A stretch of 64,000 nucleotides of DNA from an uncultured Verrucomicrobiae bacterium. Its GTDB lineage: Bacteria > Verrucomicrobiota > Verrucomicrobiia > Limisphaerales > Palsa-1400. A program made the translations under genes and the position numbers. The notes beneath the pieces were generated by a model, which saw nothing but the letters and a program-made list of their open reading frames with translations, was not told where the DNA came from and did not search any database. Positions 3,374 through 48,502 of this stretch are shown here, piece after piece; position 1 is the first letter of the stretch, and the number at the start of each line of letters is the position of its first letter. The stretch is taken from positions 1,952,001-2,016,000 of the forward strand of contig OY969763.1 of NCBI GenBank assembly GCA_963702845.1. The letters are read 5' to 3'.

Positions 3374-3397
3374 TTTTTGTAATTTTTATTAAATATT

Positions 3398-8129: not shown

Positions 8130-8292
8130 TTAAATGAATCGACCTTTAAGTCTGCGACGGAACGGAACTATTGGAGCAGCTTTAACAAATGGATATCGCA
8201 TGAAAACAGGAGAGTGAGGATCGATCTTTTTCCAGATTTTGTCTAATGCTGATTTTAGTATTCCAGTTCTATCTTCGTCCACGTCCGGCACC
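8130..8292 (-). repeat. Orphan recombinase-like C-terminal tail, family B copy 1 (putative att scar)
   Basis: VPDVDEDRTGILKSALDKIWKKIDPHSPVFMRYPF. DNA 8191-8292 aligns ungapped with 34303-34404. Confidence 0.7.
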
Positions 8293-9329: not shown

Positions 9330-9853
9330 AGGACATGCTGACATGGTTGAGCACCGTAAACAGTTCGACGATGATCGCGGTGCTTGCTTTGGTGGTGTCT
9401 TTGATCGTGATGTTTTTTAATTCTCGGCAGCTATCTCTTTTGGTCAGGCAACTTCGTCTGGATAGTCTCATCAAGATCAGCGACTGCAATCGGCAGCTTG
9501 TTTCATTGGGTTTTGCAAAACCGGAGTTGTGGAAAGCGCTAAACGAATCCACGGACTTGCTTGACGGAAAGACCGCGGAAGATCGTAGACGATACTTGCA
9601 GCTTTGGTTTAACCACATGCATGTCATATGGAAAGCTCACAGGCTCGGCCTTCTCGATCGAGATGAATGGAACGCCTGTCGTGTAGATTTGATAGATTCT
9701 TTACGAATACGATATTTGCGGACGCATTGGTCAGAAGTTAAAGAGTATTATCCGAAAGCGTTCCAATGCTTCGTGGACGACAGGATCAAAGAAGGGGATG
9801 AGACGCCTCAACGAGGAGGCGGAGTCCGCGCGGGCTTAATAACTCCCGCATAG
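9326..9853 (+). CDS. Membrane-anchored hypothetical protein
   Basis: N-terminal TM segment IAVLALVVSLIVMFF; ATGA overlap with the upstream gene. Confidence 0.7.
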   Translation: MKDMLTWLSTVNSSTMIAVLALVVSLIVMFFNSRQLSLLVRQLRLDSLIKISDCNRQLVSLGFAKPELWKALNESTDLLDGKTAEDRRRYLQLWFNHMHVIWKAHRLGLLDRDEWNACRVDLIDSLRIRYLRTHWSEVKEYYPKAFQCFVDDRIKEGDETPQRGGGVRAGLITPA

Positions 9854-10597
9854 TGGATCAGCTTCTACTCGGGGGTATGGTTGCGGATCTATGGTGAAAT
9901 CCGCATTTCCAAATGAGATCGTTCCAGAAAGTTTCGATATAATTTCTCGGATTTTCAAAAGATCTCCTGCCTCTACCGCTGCCGATTCTACCGATTTACC
10001 CACCGTGACCAGTCGTCCAGCGATGGTTCGTTTGATAAGTTCTTCTCTAAAACCTGAACGGAGGCAGTCCCGAGTATGGCAACGGTAATATTTATGTCCT
10101 TTGTGCTTTTCTGCGATGATATACCTTCGACACTTCGCGCACCGGAACGTGACAGAAAATAAGTGTCGGTGCTGTGGATTTCTTTTGTCGCGTCTGGTCA
10201 CAAGCGTCCGGCTGACCTTTTCGAATAGTTCTACCGAAATAAGCGGTTCATGGATGCCTGGGTAAATCTTGGAAGAGCAGGGGAGTTTGCCGATGTAAAA
10301 CGGATTGTGGAACATTTTGGAAAGCATGTCGGTATCCACTGGCCCGCCCTTGGAATTTCTAAGCCCTTTGGAATTCACTACGGATGCCAAACTCGCCAAT
10401 GAGTAGGCTCCAGTCGCATAAAGTGTGAACGCTTCTCTGACAAGAGATCCTTTTCTTACATCAATCGTCTTTGTTTTTCCTGGACCATTGTCGACATATC
10501 CAATCGGTGCGTGATAGGGCCATAGTCCTTGTTCGAAACGTGCAATTATTCCTTTCAACGTTTCTTCTCTCAAATTGCGGATGTAGTCATCCGCCCG
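9836..10597 (-). pseudogene. Large serine recombinase lacking the catalytic N-domain and the long coiled coil
   Basis: ADDYIRNLREETLKG...APIGY...HNPFYIG...GIHEPLIS..LF...CAKC...YYRCHTRDC is collinear with the 39742-41313 recombinase. A stop codon lies just upstream. Confidence 0.85.
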
Positions 10598-14508: not shown

Positions 14509-14515
14509 CACCGCC

Positions 14516-16354: not shown

Positions 16355-16370
16355 CAACCAAAACAGAGCA

Positions 16371-22994: not shown

Positions 22995-22998
22995 GTGT

Positions 22999-23610
22999 AT
23001 GAGATTTTTTCTCAGCTTTTTCTGTTGTGGAGTTCTCTGTTTACTCGGTTGTGCCGGTACGTCCCACCTGCAGGAACGGCAATCTCGCCGCGCCCTAGCG
23101 AAGATCGCAGACGTCCATGCGAGTACGAACGACTTGCTTTCGGCTTTGAGATCGCTTCGGGACTCTGGTTTGACAAACGAGCCGCCGCAGTTTTGGAGCG
23201 CCATCGCGAACAATCCTCAATACAGCGTGGATCACCGTAGTCGCGCAGTTCTACAGCTATTTGCTCGTCACTTCCACAGTGGAATGACGCTGGGCAACAT
23301 TGCTGAGCTTCTGAACCATCCAAGGTGGTTACACGAAAAGGACGTCCTCGTGCCAAGGGCATGGATGGGGCCATCCCCATTCGAGAGAATAGTTAACGAC
23401 GAGTATCCTTTCGTGTGGATACGTGTGATAAACTCGCCAGCCCAACGAGATAACATAGCACCGATCATCTACCTCTCGATTCGCGGAGACACACAGCGTA
23501 AGGAAGTGTTTGAATGTCTAAAAGGGAATACCAACACGTCGGTGCAAAATATTGTGGTGGATGAAATCGCCTCGCAGGAACACGTCGGCGGAAAAATTCC
23601 CCCATCATAA
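22999..23610 (+). CDS. Putative immunity lipoprotein for RHS1
   Basis: Starts 4 nt after the RHS1 stop; lipobox LLGC; unrelated to the gene after RHS2. Confidence 0.7.
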   Translation: MRFFLSFFCCGVLCLLGCAGTSHLQERQSRRALAKIADVHASTNDLLSALRSLRDSGLTNEPPQFWSAIANNPQYSVDHRSRAVLQLFARHFHSGMTLGNIAELLNHPRWLHEKDVLVPRAWMGPSPFERIVNDEYPFVWIRVINSPAQRDNIAPIIYLSIRGDTQRKEVFECLKGNTNTSVQNIVVDEIASQEHVGGKIPPS

Positions 23611-27508: not shown

Positions 27509-27693
27509 CTACGGATCACTAGGAATCGGAACAAACCTCCCATCACGATTACGTTTGCGTTTCGGAACAACCGGCCGCGTTCGGATCGAAGGGAAAGCGT
27601 TTGAAGATAGATAATGATGGATCGATTCTCTTCCAGATGGTTCTAAGCGCTATTTTCAACGTTTTAGTTCGATCTTCGTCCAAGTCCCGCTCC
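27509..27693 (-). repeat. Orphan recombinase-like tail, family B copy 2 (one extra base at ~27571)
   Basis: RDLDEDRTKTLKIALRTIWKRIDPSLSIFKRFPF. After indel correction it continues VVPKRKRNRDGRF, matching the copy at 34200. Confidence 0.68.
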
Positions 27694-30905: not shown

Positions 30906-31104
30906 TGAACGTTCAGTTTCGGGCGTTTCGTGGAATCCTGGCGAATCTTCCTTTGTGTCCGCGTTCACGTTCAGGAACGATTGGTGCATATTTTTTGAAT
31001 GGATAACGCTGAAAAACAGGGGAGTGTGGATCCATTTCTTTCCATATCTTTGCCAAGGCTATTGCCAACCTCTTGGTGCAATCCGGCGTCATTTAATCAG
31101 TTAT

Positions 31105-33696
31105 TCAGGCAGCCACCGTTTCAGCGGTTTTCAGGTCTTTGATCTCCTTTTTAAGCTTATTGAATTCTTCGATCTCGTTTTTAAGTAATTCCAAGCCCGG
31201 TTTTTTCCCGCCGAAATCGTCGCTATGCAAATGACCTTCCATGAATCTTGAAAGCGATCCGATCTTATCCCTTACTCGAATGAACACACACTTATCGAGA
31301 ACGACCCTCTCCAGAATATTCGGCCGTGTCCTTTCCTGGAATCGCTCGACCACTCCACCAAACAAATCGTAGATTATGAGGGCTTCGTAGGAGGTCCTCA
31401 ACGCCGCGAAACCTGCTTTAAGCGAGTGTTCTTGCGATTGTGGGTCTGCAGTTTTGGCGTCTTCCAAATGCATCTTTGCAAACTTATCACTTTTGTAATC
31501 CTTTTCGGATGCCGGCGAATTATTGAGGTAAATCTGTCCGGGCCGACTGGATTCGTCCTGTTTGTATATCCAGTGAACCATTGTATCCAGACCGAGTGAA
31601 TCGGCAAACTCCCGAAGCAGAAAAACGAAATGAAGGTCGTGGGTGAAAATGATCGTTTGGCGAGTTTCGGCCTCTGAAACAAGGCGCTTTGCCACATCTT
31701 CTTTCCATTCAATATCCAGTGAGGTGACGGGGTCATCCAGAACGATTCCGCAAGAGGACTCGTCCAGCGCTACCTCTGTTAAGAAATCTGCCAGGGAAGC
31801 AATTCGCTTTTCGCCCTCACTCAGAATGCGCGTCGCCGCGTATTCGCCTTTATACACAACCAGCTGCTTCAAAGGGGTCCCTTTAGTGTTCGACGTTTTT
31901 ATTTCGACCGGCAACGGTCGACCCAATTCGCGCAAGTTGTCCTTGAATAAACCGACATACTTCTTGGCGACCAGATCACCGAACAAGGCCTTTTGAAAAA
32001 CCGAGATGTGGTTCGTGGTCGGTTTGACCTTCAGCGCCTTTTCAGCCATTTGACGATTTAAGACAAACTGTCTTATTTGCTTCAGGTGCTTACCAACAAT
32101 TTGTCTGTGCTCAAAATTTCTGAGCTCAGCTTCGCGGGTTTCGATCTCTTTCTGAGGATCAGCTTTGTTGAGTCCGTCCAACTGGGCTGTTAGCGCTTCG
32201 ATAATCGGCTGTAGCTGCGGTGTTGGAACGGAACGCATGGGCACCGTTGTGACAGGCGACTTATCGGTAATCGACTTCAGTATTTGTGTTTGAAAGCCCT
32301 TCGCGTTTGCAACGAACGAGGCGACAAGCTTCTGCTCGCTTTCGTGTTCTGCTTCCAAGAGCTGATAAACCGAGGAGTTTTCATCAAAGAAGCCGATGTC
32401 GAGTTGCCCAATTTTCCGGTGAACGCCTTTCAACTGCTGCTCGCAGGACTGCATGTTCTGTTTAGAGTCGTCGTTGAGGAAATTCCAATACCTCTCGAAC
32501 AACTTGATGGCGTTCTCTTGCAATTCTTGATGGCAAAGCAAGCAATGATCGCCTTGCTTAGGATAAATAGTCCGGTCTTCTTCGTGAGTCAGCGCGTGGG
32601 CTTGGTGGATAAACTCTTGCCAGGAACCAGAGCCAATCTGTGGGAACAGTTCGTTTTTGAATGATGTCGCGCCCACGAGTTCCGATCGTGTTTTGGCAGC
32701 GTTGAAGTCGTCGATCAGTTTCTGGATCTCTTTTCTGGATTGAGTCCCGAGCGTCTGAGCAAGCGCATTTATTTTGGTAACTGAGTTCTGTAGGTCGCGA
32801 ATCGCTAAGGTTTTCTTTCGTACTTCGGCAGGGATGTTCAAGGAGCGGAATCTGGCGATCTCCTTTTTTAATCTGTCAATTTTTTGTTCGTCTGCCTCGG
32901 TTAACTTTCCCAGCTTCTCCAACCCATCAAGGTCTGTTTTTGAACTCAGAGCAGCGATCTTGGCCCTAACGTCGGAATTTCCTGCGAACTTATCCGAAAA
33001 GTCGTTTTCTTGGTTCCAGTTATCGATGCTGCTTTGCACATAGGAACCAACCTGGTCGCATACTTCGGCTAAAGACGTAAGATATTCGAGCCCGAGCGGG
33101 GAAAACTTGAACTCGTTTTCTTGGGTTAGGTGCGCACTAATGCTTTTCGTGTCATGCACATAAAATTGCTGTAACATCGGATGGTCATCATCGACATTGA
33201 AAGGAAGCTTTACGGGTCCAGCTTTCGTTTTTAGATGAAAGACGGCTTGTTTGGCGGTTTTCGATGCCTTGGGATCGGTGATATTGTGAAGAATTTCTTT
33301 GTCGCCACGAGTGAAACACGCATTTCCAAATAACCTTCCGTATCCAGATTTTCCGGTGCCGTTCGCTCCATAAATGATAGTGAGATGATCGCTAAAATCT
33401 AATTGTTGGCCATCAATCAAAGCATTGATGTTTTGAGTGCCCGTTATGGATGCGAGAAAAATCTTCTCTGAAGTCTTTTTTCCTTCCAGGGTTACAGCTT
33501 TTTGCAGTCCTTCTAGCTTTATGCGCTCATTTTTATTCTTTGTCACACCCGCATCTTCAAGCAGGCATTCGCCCATATATTCTATATCCGTGGGCTCTAT
33601 TTGCTCCCCACGGATAATAAGGTCTAGGGCGTATTGTTCCCAATATGGAAGTTTTTTAGCTTTGACCCAATCCAGTAGTTCTTTTGTGACATTCAT
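31105..33696 (-). CDS. Rad50/RloC-like ABC ATPase with zinc hook, probable defence protein
   Basis: Walker A GANGTGKS, CLLC hook inside a coiled coil, LSEGE signature, Walker B IVLDD, FTHD, C-terminal RFMEGHLH (possible HEPN-like motif). Confidence 0.85.
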   Translation of the reverse strand: MNVTKELLDWVKAKKLPYWEQYALDLIIRGEQIEPTDIEYMGECLLEDAGVTKNKNERIKLEGLQKAVTLEGKKTSEKIFLASITGTQNINALIDGQQLDFSDHLTIIYGANGTGKSGYGRLFGNACFTRGDKEILHNITDPKASKTAKQAVFHLKTKAGPVKLPFNVDDDHPMLQQFYVHDTKSISAHLTQENEFKFSPLGLEYLTSLAEVCDQVGSYVQSSIDNWNQENDFSDKFAGNSDVRAKIAALSSKTDLDGLEKLGKLTEADEQKIDRLKKEIARFRSLNIPAEVRKKTLAIRDLQNSVTKINALAQTLGTQSRKEIQKLIDDFNAAKTRSELVGATSFKNELFPQIGSGSWQEFIHQAHALTHEEDRTIYPKQGDHCLLCHQELQENAIKLFERYWNFLNDDSKQNMQSCEQQLKGVHRKIGQLDIGFFDENSSVYQLLEAEHESEQKLVASFVANAKGFQTQILKSITDKSPVTTVPMRSVPTPQLQPIIEALTAQLDGLNKADPQKEIETREAELRNFEHRQIVGKHLKQIRQFVLNRQMAEKALKVKPTTNHISVFQKALFGDLVAKKYVGLFKDNLRELGRPLPVEIKTSNTKGTPLKQLVVYKGEYAATRILSEGEKRIASLADFLTEVALDESSCGIVLDDPVTSLDIEWKEDVAKRLVSEAETRQTIIFTHDLHFVFLLREFADSLGLDTMVHWIYKQDESSRPGQIYLNNSPASEKDYKSDKFAKMHLEDAKTADPQSQEHSLKAGFAALRTSYEALIIYDLFGGVVERFQERTRPNILERVVLDKCVFIRVRDKIGSLSRFMEGHLHSDDFGGKKPGLELLKNEIEEFNKLKKEIKDLKTAETVAA

Positions 33697-33830: not shown

Positions 33831-34157
33831 ATGATCAATAGGGAGGCTCTAGACGAACTTAAGACGATCTGCGAGCGCATGGGGCACCTATGCGGGGATG
33901 AAGAAGCTCAAAGGATAGGTGAGCGAATTCTGAAGTTCATCATCAACTCAGAATATCTTCGGCCTCCGGAGTTGCTCTCGCTTGAGCAATCCGCTTTCGA
34001 TTTGATAAAAAATTCGAGCACCTCGCCTTCCATCCGAGCAATTACTGCCGCTATCGGACTGTCGTCTTCACGATCTGGATCTCGTGTTGTGCAAAGTCTG
34101 ATGCGGAAGCGACTCATTTGTCGCAATGCTGAGGGAAAGCTCACAGTCGCTCGATAG
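33831..34157 (+). CDS. Small helical domain + LexA-like winged HTH (cassette-associated)
   Basis: SPSIRAITAAIGLSSSRSGSRVVQSLMRKRLI; convergent on a family B tail. Confidence 0.8.
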   Translation: MINREALDELKTICERMGHLCGDEEAQRIGERILKFIINSEYLRPPELLSLEQSAFDLIKNSSTSPSIRAITAAIGLSSSRSGSRVVQSLMRKRLICRNAEGKLTVAR

Positions 34158-34199
34158 TTGCCGTAGTCGGCAAAGGGATGTGTCTTGTTACGAGACCCG

Positions 34200-34404
34200 T
34201 CAATTTGATAATGTGTTGTCACGCCCTTCACGCGAGATTCGACCAAATCTACCACCACGTTCACGTTTGCGTTTTGGAACGACGGAAGCGTTTCGATTGA
34301 ACGGATATCGGTTGAAAATATGAGAGTGTGGGTCGATCTTTTTCCATACCTTGTCTAATGCTGATTTTAGTGTTCTGGTTCTACCTTCGTCCACGTCCGG
34401 CACC
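34200..34404 (-). repeat. Orphan recombinase-like tail, family B copy 3
   Basis: VPDVDEGRTRTLKSALDKVWKKIDPHSHIFNRYPF...RKRERGGRF, open frame with no convincing start. Confidence 0.72.
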
Positions 34405-34708
34405 AAGTTCACCATTCGCGAAATAAGCTCAGATACAGGCGCTAATCCCCGGAGGTTTGGCGGGCAGCAAAGCGCCGAATTTTGGTAACTTAATCCGTGC
34501 GGGGGGCGAAGCTCGCCATGAAAACAGTTCTGCGTAACTTCAAGTAAAACTTGACACAGCCATATCGTTCGCCGAGAGTCGCACTACTTTCCCAATCAGC
34601 ACGAATTGAATAATCCGGGGATTCACCGAAGCGAATTGTTCAAGTGGAATCGACGCACCCTAACAAACTGAATATTCTTTCACCGATCCAATAACGAGAG
34701 GCAGGTTT

Positions 34709-36018
34709 ATGGCACATCCTAAAAAATCGAACAAGGATCAAGAGGCGACAGGGAAAAACCCGGAAAAACGAAAAGCAGCAATTGAGATTAAGGAACAAAA
34801 ATCGCCGGCGGTACGTTCCCACATATTTAAAACGTTTAAAACAATACCAAAAATTTATCTGGATGCTATTAAGACCCTTTCAGTCGACACAAAAAAGTCC
34901 CGACGACTGTTTGCCCAACTCAATAAGCACAAGGCTTCTGGAATTGTAAGAAACGTAAAACCATTGGCTGACTCGGTGCTTATTCCTAGCGGAAAGGACA
35001 CAGATGTAGTTGTCAGCAAACTGGGTCCGCCGAAAAATATTAAAATTCACGACGGTGGCGGGGGGCGAATGCCAAATGCTCAAGTGTATCTGGTATTCTG
35101 GGGCGATAAGTGGGCCAACAATCCCCCTTCCAATCCCTCGCTACAGGATATTTACGCTGATATCTCTGCCATACTCGGGAGTTCGTATCTTTATTCCGCC
35201 TTTCAATATAAACTGGGATGGAATGCCGGCGGGGCATCGCTGTCCAATGCCTGGATAGATAAACGAGGGGTGCCCAGTTACGATTTCACCATGGTTGACG
35301 TTAACTATGAAGCATGGCTGATGATGACAAGTGGGCCAATCAGCCCTGATAGCGACACAATAGTTTGCGTAATTATGGAACCTGGGGCCTCGCCGTCGGA
35401 AGATTTGCGTGGAGAGCACCAATGGAGCATTCAGCCAGATTGTCAGCAAATTCCAACAATGTGGGTGAAATATGATACACGCGAACGTATGTCCTCCACC
35501 TTTTCGCATGAACTGGTGGAAACGGTGACGGATCCATTGGGGACGGGATACAGGCGGAGCCGACCGGCTATTTTGATTGGAATGAGATTGGCGATGTATG
35601 CGAAGGTTTTGACGGCACAGTGAATGGCGTCACTGTGCAGGCTTATTGGTCTGCGAAAGATAATTCCTGTGTGATTCCACGACCGGTACCTGTAAAAGCA
35701 TGGCAGATTACTTGCATTCAGAAACGTGGGAGTCATAGCAATCCGAACGAAAACATTAAAGTGGTAGCTGGAATTCACATTCCTTCCGGTCAGAAGTTTT
35801 GGATGAAACAGGAAGAAGTTATGGCAAGAATAGACAAAGGGGATCAATTCTTCGTTGCCGGGGCCGATGGAAGCCAAGCGCAAGTTAAAGTCTTTGTCCA
35901 CTTCCCGCCTTGGCAGCCGCAAGGCAGTCGTTACATTGCAACCGTAGCCGACGACAGTACGGACGATAATCTGCTTTCGCTGCCAGACTGCCTGCAGGCC
36001 GATTTGCGTAATGGATAA
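34709..36018 (+). CDS. Phi-1/EXORDIUM-like (HELVE..TDP) domain + DUF3892-like C-terminus, split by a 1-nt deletion at ~35546
   Basis: VYLVFWG, SHELVETVTDP; the shifted frame gives WNEIGDVC..VQAYWS; C-terminus YIATVAD...DNLLSLPDC. Confidence 0.7.
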
Positions 36019-36076
36019 GTGATAAACACATCGAAATTAGACGGTCGCGGGGGACGCGCTTGCCGTTTAAAACATA

Positions 36077-36363
36077 TCGACGCCTCTTTGATTAATTCCT
36101 AACGGTGTCAGTATCTGAAGTCTCACCACAACTCATGGCCGTCGCTAAGTCGGGGAGTTTTCCCTGCATATTTAATGCTATAATAAGGCCAAGAATTTTC
36201 CTCCACGTTCGAGGTCTGTCACGTTGTGGGGGACACGATATGCCGAATTCGGCAAATGGAAGTGTCGGAATGCCCTCTACTGAGAGCTGATTTTAACAAT
36301 AAAAAGTCACGAGTAAACACCGTTTGTCAAAACCACCGGTAAACACCTGTTAGCAGGTAAACA
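36077..36363. repeat. Cassette junction repeat 3 (family A recombinase tail 36092-36235 plus spacer)
   Basis: Direct repeat of 37756-38040. The tail encodes CPPQRDRPRTWRKILGLIIALNMQGKLPDLATAMSCGETSDTDTVRN* on the minus strand. Confidence 0.92.
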
Positions 36364-36413
36364 GTCCTGCGTTATGTTTTGTTACAGCGACCGAATGTGG
36401 TACAACAATCCAT

Positions 36414-37373
36414 ATGACTAAGGTCACATTGGATACCAATTTATTGATTGAGCTTTTCGATCTCGGTATTGAGGGGAAAACAGTTCCGGCACTCGGAAAG
36501 ATTTTTAATCACTGTTTTGATTTTCAAAATATCGATCTCAAGATTACGACAAAAGTATCCGACGACTTGTTGGGGGATCGCATCAAGGAACGGGCCCAGG
36601 CATTAAAGCTGCGTATCGATAATTTGTTTTCCGTGCTCGGGGCAGGATACGTGTCCATCGATGATTTACCGAGCGATCCGATCGAAAAGCTCAACTTCAT
36701 TGAGCTTCAGCGAGTGCTTTTTCCAAATCTCATCACTACCGACAAGCGATATAAGAACAAGATCAACGATGTTCACCATCTCCATCGTCATATTCGCGCC
36801 GGCCGAGACGTCTTCATTACAAATGATTCCGACATGTTGAAAAAGAAGGACGCTTTAAAAACAGCGTTTAAAGTCGTGGTGATGAGTCCAGAGGAATGTG
36901 CAAAGTATCTCGATGTAATAACCGCGAAAGAAAGTTATCCTTTCGAGAAACACGTAGGTCGAGCCGACTATCATTCCCCGGCACTAAAAGGTACGGTGAC
37001 CTTTGATTTCACCAATAACGATCATAAGTATACGATTGGGACTGATGATTGGATTTTTGAAACTCGTTGGTCAGAGTGTAGCGACGACGAAATGTATGCC
37101 TACAACGACGCTCCATCGATCCTAGCATTGGCCGTTGCGGAGAATGTTTCGAAATTTAAGGACGTACATGATTTTGAAAGGTATGACTCAACATCTCGTG
37201 TTCGCCAACCTCGGAAGAATGTAGATATTCTCGTTCTGAAGAATTCGAAGGGATATTTTGCTGCGGTAAAGATCTGCAATATTGAGCTCAAACGCCGTGG
37301 GGGAAATAAGAATGAACTGACGTTTGAATACGTTATACAACCGAATGGGACATCATCATTCAAAGGTCTTTAA
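36414..37373 (+). CDS. PIN-domain nuclease fused to a C-terminal beta domain
   Basis: VTLDTNLLI...DVHHL..H...DVFITND (PIN acidic residues); C-domain FDFTNND..Y.IG...FETRWS. Confidence 0.75.
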   Translation: MTKVTLDTNLLIELFDLGIEGKTVPALGKIFNHCFDFQNIDLKITTKVSDDLLGDRIKERAQALKLRIDNLFSVLGAGYVSIDDLPSDPIEKLNFIELQRVLFPNLITTDKRYKNKINDVHHLHRHIRAGRDVFITNDSDMLKKKDALKTAFKVVVMSPEECAKYLDVITAKESYPFEKHVGRADYHSPALKGTVTFDFTNNDHKYTIGTDDWIFETRWSECSDDEMYAYNDAPSILALAVAENVSKFKDVHDFERYDSTSRVRQPRKNVDILVLKNSKGYFAAVKICNIELKRRGGNKNELTFEYVIQPNGTSSFKGL

Positions 37374-37423
37374 TTGATAGTGCCAGGCTTGTACAAAATC
37401 CATTCATCTGGCAATGTGTGCCG

Positions 37424-37771
37424 ATGGCGGATGAACTCAGTGAAGAACACAAGAAGGAGCTCGACCATGTCCTGGAAGCCGTTCAGCAATTCCTTTCTAC
37501 CGAAGAAGGCAGAGTAGTTTTTGATCGGCTTGAATCAATTTCAAACGGTATTCAGGCGCGGCAGGGGATAGTTGAACTCTCGTCGCACGAACGTCAGGCA
37601 CTACGATTCATTCAAACGGAACAAAGAAAGGGTTGTAATCCCTCTGTGCGGCAGATTTCGAAATCACTTGGATTTAGATCTTCTCGAACTGGCCACAAAA
37701 TTCTGAAATCATTGCGGACGAAAGGAGTTATTCCTGAACCTGCCGCCGACGTCAAATCGACGCCTCTTTGA
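37424..37771 (+). CDS. Cassette HTH protein (LexA-like wHTH), leaderless
   Basis: LSSHERQALRFI...PSVRQISKSLGFRSSRTGHKILKSL; promoter TTGTAC(37389)-N17-CAATGT-N6-ATG. Confidence 0.85.
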   Translation: MADELSEEHKKELDHVLEAVQQFLSTEEGRVVFDRLESISNGIQARQGIVELSSHERQALRFIQTEQRKGCNPSVRQISKSLGFRSSRTGHKILKSLRTKGVIPEPAADVKSTPL

Positions 37772-38040
37772 TTAATTCCAAACAGTGTCAGAATCTTCTG
37801 TGTCACCGTTCATAGCACGCTCAAGGTTGGGCAACTTGCCTTGGCGGTTTAATGCTATAATCAGGCCAAGAATCTCCTCACAGGTTCGAGGTGTGTCACG
37901 TTGTGGGGGACACGATATGCCGAATTCGGCAAATGGAAGTGTCGGAAAGCCCCCTACTGAGAGCTGATTTTGACAATAAAAAGTCACGAGTAAACACCGT
38001 TTGTCAAAACCACCGGTAAACACCTGGAGATAGGTAAACA
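37756..38040. repeat. Cassette junction repeat 2 (tail 37772-37912 plus spacer)
   Basis: Tail CPPQRDTPRTCEEILGLIIALNRQGKLPNLERAMNGDTEDSDTVWN*. Spacer is near-identical to 36236-36363. Confidence 0.92.
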
Positions 38041-38098
38041 CTTCACCAGAATAATCGGCTTACATTGAAAACTACGGTTGATGTGAGATAATCCGTCC

Positions 38099-39346
38099 AT
38101 GTTAGGTCAACCGTCAATTTCTGATTATTATCGCCAACTCGAACAAGAAGTTCGCAGTGATGTTATGCGCGAAACAGAAGAACAAATCTTAGGAACGGAT
38201 CCGGAGGAGTTAGCCCAGTATATTTTTGAGAAATATGCACTGTCACCTATAGAGCTAGATGCTGACCGTGAACCATCGTGGGATCCGCAAAATTACTTAA
38301 AGACGATTTCCGCTCAACAACGCGGTAATTTTTATGGGAGCAGTGGAGATCTCCGAGATTTTCCATGTCAGAAAGTTGCGGTTGAAGTCCCAATATTGCC
38401 AAATCCAAAGCTGCATCTCATTTCTCAAATGCATGGAGCGTCGTATTCATTGAGTTACTCGCTCAGTGACTTTCATTGGGGACAGGATTCCGTTTCGATG
38501 TCATTTCCAACGAAAGACTATCAATACCAAATGGATGATGCCGCAATAGCACATACAGTTGAGAATCAATTGCGGACAATCCACGAAACGATTAGTTCCC
38601 GTAACCAGGCTATTGAGCAGGGCAACAAACAATTGCTGACACAAACGAAATTTTATGTTCAGCAGCGTCGAGGAGAAATTGAGCAAAATAAACAGAAGCT
38701 CGAGGCTCTTACCAAGACCATCGGCGTTTCTTTAAAGAAGAAGGTTCCTGCGGGTGCACATCCTGTTCGTATTTCCCATACTCCACTTGTTCAAAGAGTA
38801 AAACCAAAACCAACGTTACCCGAGCAATATGTCCTAGATGAGAACAAAATCGATGATGTCATAAATTTGCTCGATAATCAGGCCCGTAGCTTCGAACAGA
38901 CTCCCGGCGCGTTCAAAGCATTAGGTGAAGAAGATCTCCGAGATATATTACTGTCGAATTTGAATTCCGTATTTGAAGGCGCCGCGACAGGGGAAACCTT
39001 TTCAAAAAAAGGGAAGACGGATATTTATCTGAAAATTGCGAAGGGTCAGATACTCATATGTGAATGCAAATTGTGGGCAGGTCGTTCTCTTTACGAAAAA
39101 ACTATTGATCAATTGCGAGGTTATCTGACGTGGCGGCATAACTACGGAATTATGATTACCTTTGTTCGTAATAAGGATTTTTCAAAGGTGTTACAAGAAA
39201 CCGAAAACGCGATTCAAGAACACCCATCATATCTGAATGGATTAAGGAAGATTGGAGAGACACATTTTGTATCTAATCACAAAGTTGATGACGATACGAA
39301 GGAAGTGAAGATTCACCATCTTTTTTATCACCTATATTCGAGTTAG
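38099..39346 (+). CDS. Protein with C-terminal PD-(D/E)xK restriction-like nuclease
   Basis: EEDLRD...GETFSKKGKTDI...ICECKLW...QLRGY; N-terminal globular domain plus coiled coil. Confidence 0.78.
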   Translation: MLGQPSISDYYRQLEQEVRSDVMRETEEQILGTDPEELAQYIFEKYALSPIELDADREPSWDPQNYLKTISAQQRGNFYGSSGDLRDFPCQKVAVEVPILPNPKLHLISQMHGASYSLSYSLSDFHWGQDSVSMSFPTKDYQYQMDDAAIAHTVENQLRTIHETISSRNQAIEQGNKQLLTQTKFYVQQRRGEIEQNKQKLEALTKTIGVSLKKKVPAGAHPVRISHTPLVQRVKPKPTLPEQYVLDENKIDDVINLLDNQARSFEQTPGAFKALGEEDLRDILLSNLNSVFEGAATGETFSKKGKTDIYLKIAKGQILICECKLWAGRSLYEKTIDQLRGYLTWRHNYGIMITFVRNKDFSKVLQETENAIQEHPSYLNGLRKIGETHFVSNHKVDDDTKEVKIHHLFYHLYSS

Positions 39347-39393
39347 ACATCAGTAGATTTGTACAAAATGCCTTAATCTGGCAATGTGTGCGG

Positions 39394-39798
39394 ATGACAC
39401 AAGAACTCAGCGACGAGCAAAAGAGGGAGCTTGATCACATTCTTGAAACTGTTCAGCAATTTCTTGCTACTGAAGAGGGAAAGGAAGCCTTCGATCGCCT
39501 TGAATCAATTTCAAACAGTATTCAGGCGCGACAGGGGATAGTTGAGCTCTCGTCGCACGAACGTCAGGCACTACGATTCATTCAAACGGAACAAGGAAAG
39601 GGCCGTAATCCTTCTGTGCGGCAGATTTCGAAATCACTTGGATTCAGATCTTCTCGAACTGGGCACAAAATCTTGAAATCATTACGGACGAAAGGAGTTA
39701 TTCCTAAACTTGCCACTGAAGGCAAATCGACGCCTCTTTTATTAATTCCAAACGGTGTCAGAATCAGAATTCTCACCACAACCCATGGCCGTCGCTAA
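39394..39798 (+). CDS. Cassette HTH protein, close paralog of 37424 (stop lost, overlaps recombinase end)
   Basis: Near-identical C-terminal two-thirds. CTTTGA to CTTTTA removes the stop. Same leaderless promoter at 39359. Confidence 0.85.
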   Translation: MTQELSDEQKRELDHILETVQQFLATEEGKEAFDRLESISNSIQARQGIVELSSHERQALRFIQTEQGKGRNPSVRQISKSLGFRSSRTGHKILKSLRTKGVIPKLATEGKSTPLLLIPNGVRIRILTTTHGRR

Positions 39799-41313
39799 GT
39801 CGGGGAGTTTGCCCTGTTTATTTAATGCTATAATCAGGCCAAGAATCTCCCCACAGGTTCGAGGTCTGTCACGTTGTGGGGGACAACCACTTATTTTATT
39901 CCGATTTGCGATCTCATGAAACGGAGATTGGAGCTTTAATTCTAGGTTTTTTGCCGTTGCCTGCCAGTTCGAGGTAAGAGTTTTGAGCATTTCACGTTTT
40001 TCTTCTGGGATTGCCATTTGGTAGCTCAACCAAGCGTTTCCTGCCAGTTCGAGGAATTTTTCTACGCGACTCATATTTCGCCCGTTCGAGCGTTCACAGC
40101 GCGCTAGTTGTTCTTCAAATGTTTTCTGTTCAAGGAGCAGAGCCTTTTTCTTTTGCTCAAAGAGTTCTTTGTCTAACACCTGGTCTAAATAGGCGTCGGT
40201 CAGGCGACTGAGACGTTCTTTTGCTTGGCCTAGCTGCATTTTCAATGCCCCTAACTGGGCTTCACGTTCGCTCTCCCAGTTTCCCTTCAGGCGCTTAACT
40301 TCCGTTTTGAAAAATTCCTTTTCTTGATCGTTGAAAGTCATCAGTCGAATCAATTCTTCAATTGCCACGCTGATGTCTTCTTCTCGAAAGCTGGTTGCGG
40401 GACACGCTCGGGTGTGACAGCGATAGTAGGCATGGCCCTTTTGTCGCTCGCCGATGAGCGAGTATTCACATGTGGCGCAGCGAACCATCCTACGGAATAG
40501 GAACACATGACGCTGTGTTTTTGCGCCACATTTGCCCGAAAGAACCGCTTGGACGCGATCAAAGAGCGCTCTCGTGACTAGGGGCGCGTGAATGCCGGAG
40601 AATGTTTCGTCCGTTTTGCGTATGCGGATTAAGCCCATGTAAAACGGGTTGTTAAGTATAACTGACAGGGAATTCCTGTTGACGCTTCCGCCCTTGCGTT
40701 GCCGCAGTCCACGTTTTTCTAACTCGATGCGCAGGGCCTCCAACGAAAAGCGCCCGCTTCCGTAAAGTTCAAAGACTTGGCGGACAAGCGGCCCCATAAC
40801 CGGATCAATGGTTTTTGGCTGTGCTTTTCCGCGGTCAACATAACCAATCGGCGCTTGAAGCGGATATAAGCCTTGTTTCAGGCGGCCATAGAAACCTTTG
40901 CGGGTCTCTTCGCGTAGGTTGCGAATGTAGTCAGCGGCAACTACTGCCTGGATGTCGGCGGAGAGCCGCCCGCCTCGTGTTTGTAGGTCAATGCTTTCAT
41001 TAACAAAGTGGACTTCAACTCCTTGATCTGAAAGTTCACCGATTGCTGCCCAATCGCGCAGGTTACGCGCGCCACGATCGAGCTTGTGAAGAATGATTCC
41101 TTGAGCTTTACCGGTGCGCAGAAGTTTCAGTGCCTGGTTGAACACCGGACGGCCTTGTTTTGCTGCGGTTTCCATTTCCTCGAGCCATGTCGTGATTGTG
41201 AACTGGTGCTGGTTTGCGTAGCGAGAAATAGCGTCTCGCTGTTCCTGAAGCGACACGCCTTGCGTCCCTTGTTTTACGGTGGAAACCCGTATGTAGCCGA
41301 TATATCCCTGCAT
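39742..41313 (-). CDS. Large serine recombinase (resolvase + recombinase + Zn ribbon + coiled coil)
   Basis: YIRVST catalytic Ser, LDRGARN, APIGY, LNNPFY.G, CATC/YYRCHTRAC; intact 523 aa. Confidence 0.95.
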   Translation of the reverse strand: MQGYIGYIRVSTVKQGTQGVSLQEQRDAISRYANQHQFTITTWLEEMETAAKQGRPVFNQALKLLRTGKAQGIILHKLDRGARNLRDWAAIGELSDQGVEVHFVNESIDLQTRGGRLSADIQAVVAADYIRNLREETRKGFYGRLKQGLYPLQAPIGYVDRGKAQPKTIDPVMGPLVRQVFELYGSGRFSLEALRIELEKRGLRQRKGGSVNRNSLSVILNNPFYMGLIRIRKTDETFSGIHAPLVTRALFDRVQAVLSGKCGAKTQRHVFLFRRMVRCATCEYSLIGERQKGHAYYRCHTRACPATSFREEDISVAIEELIRLMTFNDQEKEFFKTEVKRLKGNWESEREAQLGALKMQLGQAKERLSRLTDAYLDQVLDKELFEQKKKALLLEQKTFEEQLARCERSNGRNMSRVEKFLELAGNAWLSYQMAIPEEKREMLKTLTSNWQATAKNLELKLQSPFHEIANRNKISGCPPQRDRPRTCGEILGLIIALNKQGKLPDLATAMGCGENSDSDTVWN

Positions 41314-41324
41314 GAAATTTGCTG

Positions 41325-41531
41325 TTACCCGGAAGGCGGGGTACAGGGTAACGTACCGGTACCAGCGGTCAACTGGCCCTTCTGTGGATTGGATTCGATG
41401 CGTTCAAAAACGCGCAACACGAGAGCCAGATACCGATGCAAGCTGTCCTCAGCTTGGCGCAATTCGTCTTCGCTTAAATCGGGATACAATTCACGAATTT
41501 GTGGAGTGGTTTTGTCCACGTTTAATGGCAA
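41325..41531 (-). CDS. Small accessory protein upstream of the recombinase
   Basis: IRELYPDLSEDELRQAEDSLHRYLALVLRVFERI; co-oriented with the recombinase. Confidence 0.65.
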   Translation of the reverse strand: MPLNVDKTTPQIRELYPDLSEDELRQAEDSLHRYLALVLRVFERIESNPQKGQLTAGTGTLPCTPPSG

Positions 41532-41537
41532 AGCACT

Positions 41538-41711
41538 TTAGTTGTCGTTCCCGCCCTCCTTTTTCGCGTTAAAGACGACTCCGAAGAACCGTAGCAAACG
41601 CACGGCCATTTTCTGCACCTGTTTGTCCGTAAGCAAAATCCCGAATACTTCTTTATAAGCGGCCTTGAACTCCTCGATAGCCTCGCGACCCAGTTGTTGT
41701 TGTGTTTTCAT
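41538..41711 (-). CDS. Small accessory protein (57 aa, below ORF-track cutoff)
   Basis: MKTQQQLGREAIEEFKAAYKEVFGILLTDKQVQKMAVRLLRFFGVVFNAKKEGGNDN*; resembles the N-terminus of 33831. Confidence 0.65.
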   Translation of the reverse strand: MKTQQQLGREAIEEFKAAYKEVFGILLTDKQVQKMAVRLLRFFGVVFNAKKEGGNDN

Positions 41712-41792
41712 GTGTCCACATTAACGCGTGGAAAATACCCCGCCCAGACACGGCGGTATGCCGAATTCGACAACTTGTTCATTATCGTATGC

Positions 41793-41821
41793 TTGACAGA
41801 ATTATGAATATGTGTTATAAA
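41793..41821 (+). promoter_or_regulatory. Near-consensus sigma70 promoter
   Basis: TTGACA-N17-(TG)TATAAA. Confidence 0.7.
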
Positions 41822-41951
41822 CCCACACTGACTGCGCCGGAATGCGCGGGTTTTTGTTTATAGGACTTGCCGAAAACGGCAAATGGCAGTGTCTGGGCGG
41901 ATAGGCCCAAGCTGCGTAATCTTCATCCTGAACTCTCAGGGAGTTTTCACT

Positions 41952-42311
41952 ATGGCTTCTCGTCGTCTTTCAAATTACCTGGTCTCAGAAAGGAAGCGCC
42001 TTGCTCTTTCACAAGAGGAGGTGGCTTTCATGCTGGGTAAAAAGACAGGAGAGCAGGTATCGCGTCATGAGTGCTTCTCGCTGGTGCCGACGCTCGAGAC
42101 CGCGCTCCAATACGAAGCGATATACAAAAAACCGGTCAGCGAACTGTTCGCCGGGCTGTTTGATAACGCGCAAGCGGATGTTGCTGATCGCGCGGAACTA
42201 TTGTCAAATCGCGAGCGAAGGACAAAGGGAAAGGAGCGGAATGCCATAAAGAAGCAGCTGTTTGAGGGTCTCGCCTTCGGGGAAATTCTGAAAAATCATG
42301 GGCAAAAATAA
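41952..42311 (+). CDS. XRE-family HTH protein
   Basis: NYLVSERKRLALSQEEVAFMLG....VSRHE....PTLETAL. Confidence 0.85.
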   Translation: MASRRLSNYLVSERKRLALSQEEVAFMLGKKTGEQVSRHECFSLVPTLETALQYEAIYKKPVSELFAGLFDNAQADVADRAELLSNRERRTKGKERNAIKKQLFEGLAFGEILKNHGQK

Positions 42312-42827
42312 ACACCAACTTCAACGTGTTCTCGGGCTCGCCGTTTCGAGTCGCGGCTTTGGCTATGCGCTCTTTGAAGGAGAGAAATTGGTCAATTGGG
42401 GCTTTGCCTCAACTAAACAAAAGCAGAATGTCAACGCGTGGTGTGCAAAGCGGATCGAGAGAATGGTTAAACAGTATGAGCCGGATGTGATTGTAATCGA
42501 AAGCGTATTTGCAAACGGTGCTGTCCGTTCGCCGCGTGTTCGCCGGCTTGCGAAACAGATTGAAGTGATAGCAGGTAGACGACAGTCGCGCGTTAAATCA
42601 TTTTCGAAACTTCACGTGATCAAATCCGTCTGCGGAACCGTATCAGCGACGAGGCACGACATGGCTGACAAAGTTTCCAAACTATATCCAAACGAACTCT
42701 CATTTCGTTTACCCAAGCGGCGCGGAACCTCGTATCCGAAGACCGTCGTATTCGCATGTTTGAGGCTGTGGCTTTAGCACTTCTCGTAGTAAAAGGACGA
42801 AGCTGCACGCCTGTGGATGATTTTTAG
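42298..42827 (+). CDS. RuvC/RNase H-fold protein, 1-nt frameshift at ~42730
   Basis: VLGLAVSSRGFGYALFE, PDVIVIE; the shifted frame gives SEDRRIRMFEAVALAL. Confidence 0.65.
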
Positions 42828-43079: not shown

Positions 43080-45734
43080 ATGAAATTTGGAGCGTTTCTT
43101 ACCACACTGATCCTTTCTGTCTTCGGTTTCCACGCCGCTAATGCTGATGTCGTTGTTGGCGGAGCTGCAGTCGTACCTGCGATTTGGTCGCAACCTTTAA
43201 GCCAGACGACCGGATTCGGGACTGACGTGACTTTCACAGCCGGTGTCACTGCGGACAGTCCGACATACCAATGGTTCAAGAACGGAGCGCCTCTCGCCGA
43301 CTACAACAACATCGCGGGATCGAGCTCGGCCATGCTTCATGTCGTTGGCGCGGCGCTTGATGACGCGGGAAGTTACAGCCTAATCGTGACGAGCGCGGCG
43401 GGGCTTTCCAGCACCAGCACTGTTGCGACGCTATCAATTAACCAAAAACTCGTCTTCGCAGACGATTTCGAAAGTGGGCTGGCCAACTGGAAGGCGGGCT
43501 ACGATTCAGTAATGTTGAATTGGGATACGAATGTTAACCATACGCCTGGCGGCACCAGCTCGGCATTGGCGTCGGGAAAACCGAGCAGAATGCATCATAG
43601 CCTGGCAAAGAAACTGCACGGTCGACTGCAACTCTCGTTCTGGATGTATGACGACGGAGTGAGCAAGATGGCTGTAGGAGAGGTCTGTGGCTATTCGGGC
43701 GAGAATGGCTATGGTCGCTACGCCATTCACGACGGATTCGGCCTGATCCAGTCACTGGGCATTGGTTACCGTTCCTTCACCGGAACGAACGTTGAGGCGC
43801 GCGCCGAACAATTGGATGCGACGAAGTATCAGGCACATGTTTTGCGAGGACCGGGACATGGCTGGTTCAACCTGAGTGCGCCTGGAGCGCCGACCCGGTC
43901 CCGCGGCTGGCATAAGTTTGAGATACGGCGGTCGAAGGACGAGCACATTATCGACTTCTACGTCGACGGTGTTCTTGGTCGGCGAATCCGCGAGGCGCGG
44001 TCTGCGGACCTCGACACCATTATCGTGGGATCGTGGGGAGCACTGGGGCAAGGGGACGGGTCGGGAGCAACTGGAGTCTGCAGCTTTGATGACATTGCGC
44101 TTGAGGCGTATCCCGCTACGTTCGACTACGAATCATCGGCACAGAGTGGTCCCGTGCCCACGATCATGCAGCTTCGGGAAACCGGCACGAACGGGGCAGT
44201 TTCCGGCGTCACTGCGGTTACGGCTGTGGAACTGGCTGGCTCGGCCGCACAAGCCATAGCCGGCAAATGGGAAGCGATAAGCACGGGCATGCTCGCGACA
44301 GACGTTCGCGGACAACTTGCGTATTCGATCACCGTTCCGTCAGACGACGTATACCGCATTGAAATCGAAGGTCGTGAAGAGTCCGGACGCATGCCCGAAG
44401 TAGATTTACCGCTCAACGTGTCGATGGACGGAGAATATTTGGGCCATTTCAATTTGGAGTATCACAGGCAGACGAGCGGCCGCGTTCATTGTTTCACGCC
44501 GTTCATCCGAGCGGGAGTGCACAACGTGGTGATCGAATGGGACAACGCCCGTCCTCGCCGAGCGCTTTACCTAACTGCTGTACGCCTGCAATCGCTGCCG
44601 AGTTCTGTCGTCGCCAACAACGGTATTAAGCAGTGGGTCGTTAATAGATTGTCGGCTGAATGCGGACTGGAAGTGATTCCCCGAGCAAGCAAGGTTTCTC
44701 CAGTCTGCATCGAAGGCCGGGCGCGCTATCATAAAAATATGACCGTGCTGGCGGGCGAGCAGTATCCGCTCGCGCCAGTGACAGCCCATCACGGTACGGG
44801 ATATCGCTGGTATGCGAACGTTCCGTTGTCCGCTACGAACGTGACCGCAGTGGAAGTCTCGTATCAAAGCGGAGTTGTATCCGAAACCAACACCATTGTG
44901 TGGGAGCCGACGGACGTTCTCACGGAAGCCGATATGCAGATTCGAAAAGGAGATTCACTAATCTTCAACGCGGTTCCCGCAGGTGTTTCAAACGGCACGT
45001 TCAGGATCAGCATCAATTCGCAAAGCATCAATGCTGACGCGTTGAGCGTGGTTCCGTACCGGTTTTCTCAGCCGGGCACCTACACTGTCACCGGAACGTA
45101 TCTGAATTCTGGCGCATCGCGCTCGATAAACGTGCATGTGATTGACGCTTCGCTGCCCCGCATTGTGGCGGTGGTGGGATGGCGAGCGCATTGGTATTGC
45201 ACGAATCTGCCGCCTGAAGTCGTCATAGACAGCGATCCTCGAATATTACTCGGCACTCCGCAGGGCATACGTCCAAAGCGAGTTATTCAGAAGACCGCTG
45301 CGCCTGCTGCGCCGCAGGGTGAAAACGCACGTGATTTCAACATTCGCAACGCCTCGACTGAAGAACCTCGGTATGTCGTGGCGCGATTGGGAACGAATGG
45401 TCCGATCATGGCCAGCGCGACTATACAGGGTATCAAGTTTGCCATTCCACCTGAGACGCAGCTGCGAGTGATGGACCGTAAAGAGGATGGCACGCAACTC
45501 ATCGAAGGTACGTATCTCGTCAATCCGATGCTGCCGACGCTGACTGTCGGTTTCCGAATCGCGACTGCCGGAGTGACTTTCGATGACGGCACGGTCCAGA
45601 AGCTTTTGACGCCGACAGACTTCGACGGCCTGGGTCTTTGCAGGCTTCGTTTCGTGCGAAGCACGGGCGTTCAGGGAAGCGTCTGTCACGACATGCAGGT
45701 GTACGAGAATGGCGTTCTGATCAATCACAAATGA
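43080..45734 (+). CDS. Secreted Ig-domain / beta-sandwich protein (RHS module 2, gene 1)
   Basis: Signal peptide ANA-D; TYQWFKNG...DAGSYSL; full-length paralog of 10918. Confidence 0.9.
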   Translation: MKFGAFLTTLILSVFGFHAANADVVVGGAAVVPAIWSQPLSQTTGFGTDVTFTAGVTADSPTYQWFKNGAPLADYNNIAGSSSAMLHVVGAALDDAGSYSLIVTSAAGLSSTSTVATLSINQKLVFADDFESGLANWKAGYDSVMLNWDTNVNHTPGGTSSALASGKPSRMHHSLAKKLHGRLQLSFWMYDDGVSKMAVGEVCGYSGENGYGRYAIHDGFGLIQSLGIGYRSFTGTNVEARAEQLDATKYQAHVLRGPGHGWFNLSAPGAPTRSRGWHKFEIRRSKDEHIIDFYVDGVLGRRIREARSADLDTIIVGSWGALGQGDGSGATGVCSFDDIALEAYPATFDYESSAQSGPVPTIMQLRETGTNGAVSGVTAVTAVELAGSAAQAIAGKWEAISTGMLATDVRGQLAYSITVPSDDVYRIEIEGREESGRMPEVDLPLNVSMDGEYLGHFNLEYHRQTSGRVHCFTPFIRAGVHNVVIEWDNARPRRALYLTAVRLQSLPSSVVANNGIKQWVVNRLSAECGLEVIPRASKVSPVCIEGRARYHKNMTVLAGEQYPLAPVTAHHGTGYRWYANVPLSATNVTAVEVSYQSGVVSETNTIVWEPTDVLTEADMQIRKGDSLIFNAVPAGVSNGTFRISINSQSINADALSVVPYRFSQPGTYTVTGTYLNSGASRSINVHVIDASLPRIVAVVGWRAHWYCTNLPPEVVIDSDPRILLGTPQGIRPKRVIQKTAAPAAPQGENARDFNIRNASTEEPRYVVARLGTNGPIMASATIQGIKFAIPPETQLRVMDRKEDGTQLIEGTYLVNPMLPTLTVGFRIATAGVTFDDGTVQKLLTPTDFDGLGLCRLRFVRSTGVQGSVCHDMQVYENGVLINHK

Positions 45735-46630: not shown

Positions 46631-46643
46631 TCGAGTACCACGC

Positions 46644-48491: not shown

Positions 48492-48502
48492 CGATCCGCA
48501 AC

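Follow-up and report, generated by a model that had tools for sequence, protein, structure and literature searches.

Coding-tail copies of a large serine recombinase bound a row of cassettes with exchanged cargo in an uncultured Verrucomicrobiae bacterium

A 64,000-nt stretch of the single 6.03-Mb contig of an uncultured Verrucomicrobiae bacterium (OY969763.1, positions 1,952,001 to 2,016,000; hereafter the window, numbered from its first base) carries an intact gene for a large serine recombinase (LSR), and the last codons of this gene recur downstream of it as separate open reading frames (ORFs). The predicted LSR has the domain order that defines large serine recombinases: an N-terminal resolvase-type catalytic domain (Resolvase PF00239, residues 5-148, 3e-28) is followed by Recombinase (PF07508, 5e-15) and zinc-ribbon (Zn_ribbon_recom PF13408, 2e-07) domains, and its motif YIRVSTVKQ contains the Arg-Val-Ser-Thr that is invariant in an alignment of 15 sequences. 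Matches to the NCBIfam models for XisF and CcrA/B/C were all under their cut-offs (CcrB 81 bits against 900; CcrA 67 against 700; CcrC 63 against 900), and by these scores the enzyme is not of the Ccr type.

A search of the bacterium's own genome with the LSR protein returned two orphan tails (E 2e-18 and 4.6e-16), which are 81% and 77% identical to residues 476-523, and orphan tail 2 with its adjoining spacer, used as a DNA query, matched three places only, all of them in the window. The three tails are near-identical through GTTGTGGGGGACA (plus strand) and then diverge, the LSR gene continuing into its body and both orphans into a spacer beginning CGATATGCCGAATTCGGCAAATGG; homology between the LSR and the orphans ends no more than one base from a GT dinucleotide, the proposed crossover point. 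The repeat of tail plus spacer, 231 nt long, shows 86% identity, and the tails share 83% (tail 3 and tail 1), 77% (tail 2 and tail 1) and 70% (tail 2 and tail 3) of their amino acids. Two units are thereby delimited, of 1677 nt (37912-36235) and 1973 nt (39885-37912), each running from spacer through unrelated cargo and a LexA-type winged-helix gene to a tail. A preliminary description of this DNA had reported the three tail copies at these positions, the abrupt stop of identity with a shared spacer of about 128 bp, units of the same size and order with a helix-turn-helix (HTH) gene, tails that stay open though diverged, and a tail 3 nearer to tail 1 than to tail 2; alignment and own-genome searches bear out each of these statements. 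The possibility that the repeats are a collapsed-repeat artefact of assembly, which the same description had raised, is excluded by a divergence of 12-22% between copies and by their unrelated cargo.

The HTH gene, tail and spacer of the two cassettes are about 86% identical, the winged-helix genes alone 83%, and the cargo is unrelated: that of cassette 1 belongs to a candidate defence family and has no Pfam family, whereas that of cassette 2 has no match in Pfam or PADLOC and no meaningful match in NCBIfam. Each of these two cassettes, presumed to be the youngest in the window, has its own regulator gene and about 180 nt of upstream DNA. A search of 400 other genomes sampled from the phylum gave no copy of the cassette winged-helix gene. 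A terminator-like hairpin with a T-run lies within tails 3 and 1 (36151-36166 and 39801-39816) on the plus strand, that of the convergent winged-helix gene, and tail DNA may, besides its other roles, terminate this gene.

The array extends well beyond these units. The preliminary description had given its extent as 36077 to 41313, coordinates that are correct but understate the feature, since a second repeat family, a diverged tail type with an open frame (VPDVDEGRTRTL...) and again a break at GT (34403 and 8291), continues it leftwards. A database protein (P0001) fuses an LSR-like C-terminal end to a tail of this second type. Two further type-2 tails lie left of the window, at 31 and 45 kb, all type-2 copies being on the minus strand; types 1 and 2 together make at least nine tails or junctions across about 85 kb. 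Between the nearest type-2 tail and tail 3 stands an older cassette in which only the last ~33 nt of the HTH gene are left, and a more diverged winged-helix gene, HTH0, is paired with a type-2 tail both in the window and 45 kb to its left. A truncated second LSR, flanked by two type-2 tails, heads a paralogous cluster of Ig-like, LamG and RHS genes; this truncated LSR with its cluster is a decayed whole element inside the array.

Table 1. Positions of the recombinase gene, tails, cassettes and associated features in the window.
Feature	Positions	Strand	Basis
Large serine recombinase (LSR_B), intact, 523 aa	39742..41313	-	Pfam domains
Tail 1, last 47 LSR codons; first ~36 nt form the conserved right arm GT-N20-TCGAAC	39742..39885	-	alignment
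Proposed crossover dinucleotide GT, within the Cys476 codon TGT (39885-39883)	39883..39884	-	homology break point
Orphan tail 2, 46 codons, open	37772..37912	-	alignment and genome searches
Orphan tail 3, 47 codons, open; homology to the tail-1 region reaches 36059	36092..36235	-	alignment
Spacer of cassette 1, 128 nt, left arm of orphan junction; opens with palindrome TGCCGAATTCGGCA	37913..38040		
Cassette 1 cargo, 415 aa, PADLOC candidate defence family PDC-S54	38099..39346	+	E 3e-80, full length
Cassette 1 LexA-type winged-helix gene; 3' end convergently overlaps LSR tail	39388..39798	+	Pfam LexA_DNA_bind 8e-09
Spacer of cassette 2, 128 nt, same family as 37913-38040	36236..36363		
Cassette 2 cargo, 319 aa	36414..37373	+	no known family
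Cassette 2 LexA-type winged-helix gene	37418..37771	+	Pfam LexA_DNA_bind 9e-10
Older cassette between type-2 tail and tail 3: 304-aa ORF 34709..35623, DUF3892 ORF 35620..36018	34404..36091	+	
Type-2 orphan tail, open frame, GT at 34403	34245..34403	-	
Diverged winged-helix gene HTH0 beside type-2 tail	33831..34157	+	
Older-cassette cargo, 863-aa AAA_13 ATPase, PADLOC PDC-S06	31105..33696	-	Pfam AAA_13; PADLOC E 1e-131
Type-2 tail copy, weaker match, boundary approximate	30943..31077	-	tblastn 53% identity, E 2.5e-12
Type-2 tail copy, degenerate at GT (GT lost)	27573..27693	-	
Truncated second LSR, 47% identity to residues 126-318	9836..10573	-	protein search
Type-2 tail copy, GT at 8291	8142..8291	-	
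Two small genes 5' of LSR: orf68 41325..41531, orf57 41538..41711	41325..41711	-	orf68 conserved beside LSR in relatives
Divergent control region, 34-nt inverted repeat with TGCCG-N4-CGGCA palindrome as in spacers	41740..41900		repeat comparison
XRE-type regulator 41952..42311 and RuvC-like nuclease 42298..42777	41952..42777	+	conserved LSR partners in relatives

Relatives of the LSR were collected with up to 10 kb of DNA on each side, giving 26 loci from species genomes, 80 from metagenomes and one from the same family. The labels of their metagenome-assembled genomes (MAGs) span many phyla (Verrucomicrobiota, Acidobacteriaceae, Blastocatellia, Bacteroidetes, a Patescibacteria group bacterium, Desulfarculus and others), and in viral contigs only three relatives were found. 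The LSR C-terminus could be located in 87 of 103 loci examined, and a profile made solely from LSR-attached tails was applied to the 54 loci with at least 2 kb of downstream DNA. Orphan tails are present in 12 of these 54 (two of them in L112), all downstream of the LSR and on its strand, 1.4 to 7.2 kb away; the profile found none on the opposite strand of the same loci. In 11 of the 12 loci the onset of homology between LSR and orphan is no more than a few bases from one codon, NGT (Cys, Gly or Ser); in L047 the onset is at +12. Because the base preceding the GT differs in at least seven LSR/orphan pairs, the break falls at the GT, and homology breaks at a conserved GT would be consistent with a crossover staggered by 2 bp. 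Two loci, L018 and L047, share the order RuvC-XRE-orf68-LSR-tail-XRE as well as the left arm and the orphan tail, at about 70-74% DNA identity, and differ in their cargo.

The genes around the LSR recur with it. In tblastn searches orf68 matched 13 related loci and lies directly upstream of the LSR in 12 of the 13, with an extra copy within the L018 cassette; it has no family match in Pfam, NCBIfam or Atlas. RuvC-like matches (Pfam RuvC 5e-05 for the window protein) occur in 10 related loci, and the likeness of the XRE-type regulator to those of L018 and L025 is based on a reading of their ORF lists. The LSR is a member of a mobile element family, composed of RuvC-like nuclease, XRE regulator, small orf68 and LSR, that is present in many phyla, and it is, unlike an integron integrase, not a fixed platform. 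The closest LSR from the same family of bacteria (L009/L134; 59% identity, same orf57-orf68-XRE-RuvC core) is accompanied by a partial second tail without the arm (G025:C92, 22175-22312), which begins about 50 nt past the LSR stop. A third, distant serine recombinase (23% identity; G000:C1, 1878223-1879716) is encoded outside the array, 73 kb to the left of the window.

A different partner was found at the same point in a minority of loci. At six of the 87 loci the normal LSR tail is missing; antisense to the LSR lies a complete tRNA gene, and 3-9 nt separate the tRNA 3' end from the point at which the alignment of the LSR body stops. The fused tRNAs are Glu, Ala, Arg, Ala, Leu and Gln. In L035, whose junction was compared in detail, the tRNA arm reads GT-N14-TTCGAAC against GT-N20-TCGAAC in a normal tail, i.e. 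it is 6 nt shorter; on this comparison the start of the tail looks like a tRNA acceptor and T-arm in antisense, made six bases longer. The attP half-sites of serine integrases exceed attB half-sites in length by about the same difference. The preliminary description had placed the att site inside the 3' coding end of the LSR, and the same point in 11 of 12 other loci, lying 3-9 nt from the junction in the six tRNA fusions, upholds that placement.

No distal tail was detected within 10 kb upstream of five of the tRNA-fused LSRs. In the sixth locus, L107, an upstream tail was considered as the distal end of the element and rejected, as it belongs to a second, broken LSR (5217-5696, zinc ribbon to tail) that lies 5.8 kb upstream of the tRNA-fused one and adjoins an IS3-like transposase fragment (named by eye); L107 holds two LSR elements in tandem at one tRNA. 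Of two further tRNA calls downstream of an LSR, the one in L057, at 2.4 kb, falls within an ORF and appears spurious, and the one in L031, at 8.8 kb, is a real tRNA-Pro. The LSR genes of L035, L092, L024 and L032 contain a second TCGAAC stretch about 100 nt upstream of the crossover, which encodes a conserved ..TSN.. in L035, L092 and L024.

The tail is constrained on two levels. Across 63 LSR genes, a set for which the GT itself was a selection criterion, third codon positions hold on average 1.06 bits of information in tail codons 1-12 and 0.10 bits in codons 13-16; codon 9 (Arg) is CGA in every gene, and codon 8 never varies at its third base. Given this high third-position information, the first ~36 nt of the tail are constrained as DNA, as expected of an arm bound by a recombinase. 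The preliminary description had proposed the ratio of nonsynonymous to synonymous substitution (dN/dS) of the tails as a check, and it indicates purifying selection: values are 0.13-0.55 in all 15 within-array tail pairs, 0.29-0.44 among the window tails and 0.30 when pooled without the first 12 codons. These values come from short sequences compared in non-independent pairs, and part of the divergence may be older than the arrays. Tail ORF lengths are equal within one codon in 12 of the 15 pairs. Beyond its first ~12 codons the tail is constrained as protein.

Junction anatomy and its recurrence, constraint on arm and tail, conserved frames with swapped cargo and fusions to tRNA genes, all of them direct observations, are best accommodated, in our judgement with somewhat better than even probability, by tandem accretion of non-autonomous cassettes through site-specific recombination at the intragenic att site of the LSR. 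The crossover would be the GT dinucleotide 47 codons ahead of the LSR stop, the right arm of the site the ~35 nt past it (GT-N20-TCGAAC, coding ..PRT..), and the left arm of the LSR site the end of the LSR body (..ATCGCAAATCG..A-rich..). All junctions would then have the form left arm, GT, tail, with the left arm supplied either by the end of the LSR body or by the non-coding end of a cassette. Along the reading direction of the LSR a cassette would consist of tail, regulator gene, cargo and non-coding left arm, with no recombinase, and its circle would carry a single junction of left arm and tail. Recombination of the circle junction with the LSR junction would insert the cassette, make the incoming tail the new C-terminus of the enzyme and leave the former tail behind as an orphan; in the reverse direction, two direct junctions would recombine and the intervening DNA would be excised as a circle with one junction. 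Whole elements (RuvC-like nuclease, XRE, orf68 and LSR, here together with the RHS toxin cluster) would enter the same array or the 3' ends of tRNA genes, and the outcome in this genome would be a defence-gene-rich island with at least nine junctions. That the LSR catalyses these events, that cassettes move at the present day and in what order they arrived is what we infer from this arrangement. The recombinase-less circles supplying a new C-terminus that the preliminary description had envisaged fit the recombinase-less units, the unrelated cargo and the full-length, selected tails; what does not hold is an LSR that stays in place like an integron platform.

Several points weigh against accretion of this kind. 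Neither profile nor pattern revealed a tail at the far side of the LSR-bearing element (41.3-57 kb), and because there is no distal junction the insertion of that element itself is left unexplained. Two same-genus contigs were compared in search of an empty site, and neither is syntenic with the flanks of the island. Classical serine integrases pair attP with attB only, and two sites with the same right arm would be a non-standard substrate pair. The left arms of the orphans are unlike that of the LSR, in-register position weight matrix scores being no better than random in 13 of 14; on these scores the idea that they are remnants of the LSR left arm was rejected, and since the left arms differ, partner sites share the right arm only. 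(Short palindromes show no more than a weak enrichment in the left arms: stems of at least 5 bp occur in 6 of 14 against 20% of controls, binomial P 0.05, and in 4 of 12 when related copies are dropped, P 0.21; the Mann-Whitney test gave P 0.02.) Most arrays have tails that are more closely related to one another than to tails elsewhere, a kinship of which local duplication or gene conversion could be an alternative source, and dN/dS below 1 may reflect divergence from the time when each tail was attached to an LSR. Finally, cassettes of L018, L088 and L112 contain a diverged copy of orf68, 66 nt to about 1.3 kb before the next tail, so that at least some cassettes appear to descend from whole elements that lost the LSR body.

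This last observation leads to the possibility that the array is a static relic, in which whole elements integrated successively at one spot and each then lost its LSR body by deletion, leaving immobile fossils with the intact LSR as the last survivor. Besides the orf68-like genes retained ahead of a tail, the decayed element with its truncated LSR between two type-2 tails and the loss of the GT in one type-2 tail speak for such a history. Random deletions, however, would not place their ends so near the GT, only a few bases away, in 14 of 15 orphans (12 loci and the window). The orphans of the dN/dS pairs kept open frames, mostly of matched length, with dN/dS below 1, and a single frame holds differing cargo in cassettes 1 and 2 of the window and in L018 and L047; we regard it as unlikely that the whole array arose in this way. 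The preliminary description had counted it as a refutation if each unit were a deletion remnant of a complete element: as an origin this would apply to at least some cassettes, those with orf68, but their junctions are still site-specific. Local duplication of the LSR 3' region with gene conversion or homologous recombination and later insertion of cargo, i.e. no site-specific recombination at all, would account for tails that are mostly closest relatives within arrays and for tails 1 and 3 being more alike than neighbouring tails. It would not account for a sharp break at the same GT in diverged lineages, tRNA fusions within a few bases of the same point, an arm constrained at the DNA level, or cargo that is all unrelated and always lies between the same parts of the frame, and we consider such an origin highly improbable.

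The mobile unit could also be the recombinase module itself (about 39886-41753), made up of the LSR body and the small genes upstream of it, landing in pads of spacer and tail and borrowing its own tail from the pad. The first 20 nt of the spacer (CGATATGCCGAATTCGGCAA) are indeed found again, in direct orientation and at 90% identity, at 41754-41773, past orf57; TGTC is common to all these junctions, and the L018 orphan is preceded by a diverged orf68 where the LSR body would sit. Yet the left boundary of such a module would have to vary, being upstream of orf57 in the window and after orf68 in L018, and its circular form would be without the conserved tail. The RuvC-XRE-orf68-LSR order, conserved in many loci, implies that the neighbours are not arbitrary pads, and the shared motif also forms an inverted repeat around a promoter-like site, which fits an operator; a hopping module is in our view very unlikely. 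The motif in question, 26 nt with the palindrome TGCCG-N4-CGGCA, stands at the start of both spacers (36241-36266, 37918-37943), after HTH0 (34159-34184) and in the control region at 41868-41893 and, inverted, at 41747-41772. There the 34-nt inverted repeat with its palindrome surrounds what looks by eye like a promoter (TTGACA-17-TATAAA), situated between the LSR operon and the XRE gene, and the palindrome is possibly an operator common to the cassettes and the LSR/XRE control region. A promoter scan gave a result at chance level.

Accretion at an intragenic site invites comparison with known systems. In integrons a tyrosine recombinase acts on folded single-stranded attC sites, and most cassettes lack a promoter. 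The array resembles them in that one recombinase stands beside small cassettes lined up in a single direction, whose cargo is unrelated and often of defence type; it is not an integron, since it has no IntI-type tyrosine recombinase, its only recombinase being a serine enzyme, and since its junctions are copies of the LSR tail. Staphylococcal SCC composite islands (CcrAB/CcrC) grow by successive cassettes, some of them recombinase-less, which accumulate at the 3' end of rlmH (orfX), and the junctions repeat the end of the target. Large serine recombinases and a pile-up of cassettes are common to both, whereas the SCC target is rlmH (orfX) and the target here is the recombinase gene itself. In the integration-dependent immunity of mycobacteriophages, attP reportedly lies in the 3' end of a gene, so that integration alters the C-terminus of the product; the exchange of a C-terminus is alike, but there the gene affected is said to be a repressor gene and no cassette arrays are formed. 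Cis-mobilizable accretion of the ICESt1/ICESt3 type involves repeated integration at one site, which displaces older elements.

Non-autonomous elements and degraded remnants bounded by att repeats have been described for tRNA-seeded islands named tycheposons (bioRxiv 10.1101/2020.12.28.424599). Both these and the ICESt1/ICESt3 type differ from the array in using mostly tyrosine recombinases and in having repeats that are partial tRNA genes outside the integrase gene. The closest parallel is in the ssrA genomic islands of Dehalococcoides, for which McMurdie et al. (2011, PMC3146451) report a CcrB-like serine integrase gene, dsiB, that overlaps attL/attP, and tandem islands with 20-bp ssrA direct repeats between them. 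Some of these islands are without an integration module and are read there as cis-mobilizable and joined by accretion, and dsiB is suggested to be complete perhaps only on the circle or beside an island that supplies a 3' fragment. The earlier statement that no system with this layout has been described was therefore too strong, the Dehalococcoides islands being a partial precedent (PMC3146451). DsiB is a serine recombinase of ~540 aa at the island edge, its gene crossing attL/attP at the 3' end into the target gene or a neighbouring island, and the window LSR gene likewise overlaps its att repeat, with the crossover 47 codons inside the ORF. The overlapped C-terminus in Dehalococcoides is described there as divergent and probably non-functional, whereas the tail of 46-47 codons is here conserved, open and under purifying selection. 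Moreover, the target there is ssrA (tmRNA), in contrast to the tRNA genes at which relatives of the window LSR sit, and in place of the module given there (DsiA, RecF, ParB, Mom) the window has orf68, orf57, XRE and the RuvC-like nuclease. The window system works like the Dehalococcoides ssrA islands and is not a member of them, since target, accessory genes and recombinase lineage differ. In literature searches that covered sources outside subscription journals, no paper other than PMC3146451 was found on arrays whose cassettes are delimited by copies of the coding tail of a serine recombinase.

Further features place the array in a larger island. The RHS cluster beside the truncated LSR (10918-23000) is collinear with one beside the intact LSR (43080-55300), each with an Ig-like protein, a HEAT-repeat protein, a LamG protein and a ~2200-aa RHS-repeat protein; DNA identity between the two reaches ~80% over 5 kb and homology stops near the RHS C-termini (22424 and 54613), as expected for polymorphic toxin tips. 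At 1921-5872 lies a CBASS-type set consisting of an E1/E2-like ThiF protein, a SMODS cyclase with AGS-C sensor domain and a SLATT_6 two-helix effector. The right edge of the island is occupied by a 133-aa ORF (55916-56317), probably a small insertion-sequence gene; DNA matching it occurs in several copies per genome elsewhere in the family. The flank from ~56.5 kb onwards is conserved in family genomes. Neither a tRNA nor a tmRNA gene is present in the 140 kb scanned around the window (1.90-2.04 Mb), and the tmRNA gene of the genome, at 1.686 Mb, is far from the array. The nearest suitably oriented tRNA, a tRNA-Glu (1,860,157-1,860,231) about 46 kb past the leftmost detected tail, was considered as anchor of the array and rejected because a ClpB-like gene and other ORFs (named by eye) intervene.

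A bolder reading, tentative and in our estimation rather doubtful, is that the system is a serine-recombinase counterpart of the integron, in which an LSR encoded on the chromosome takes up and releases defence cassettes, each with regulation of its own, at a site in the reading frame of the LSR. As every cassette would bring a replacement C-terminal module, capture would never inactivate the recombinase, and the attached tail may tune the activity or direction of the LSR. If this is true, the family would be a widespread builder of defence islands, found in MAGs labelled Verrucomicrobiota, Acidobacteriaceae/Blastocatellia, Bacteroidetes and others. The same ~36 nt would serve as a proposed recombinase-binding arm and as codons, each cassette shipping a spare C-terminus for the enzyme, and the many natural site pairs with a defined GT core may be of interest to users of serine-integrase tools. 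Should the cassettes be fossils, the arrays would still be a clear case of tandem accretion, extending the Dehalococcoides example to other phyla and to tRNA targets. If they move, they would offer a testable route to defence islands, in which a serine recombinase family of many phyla strings together self-contained cassettes.

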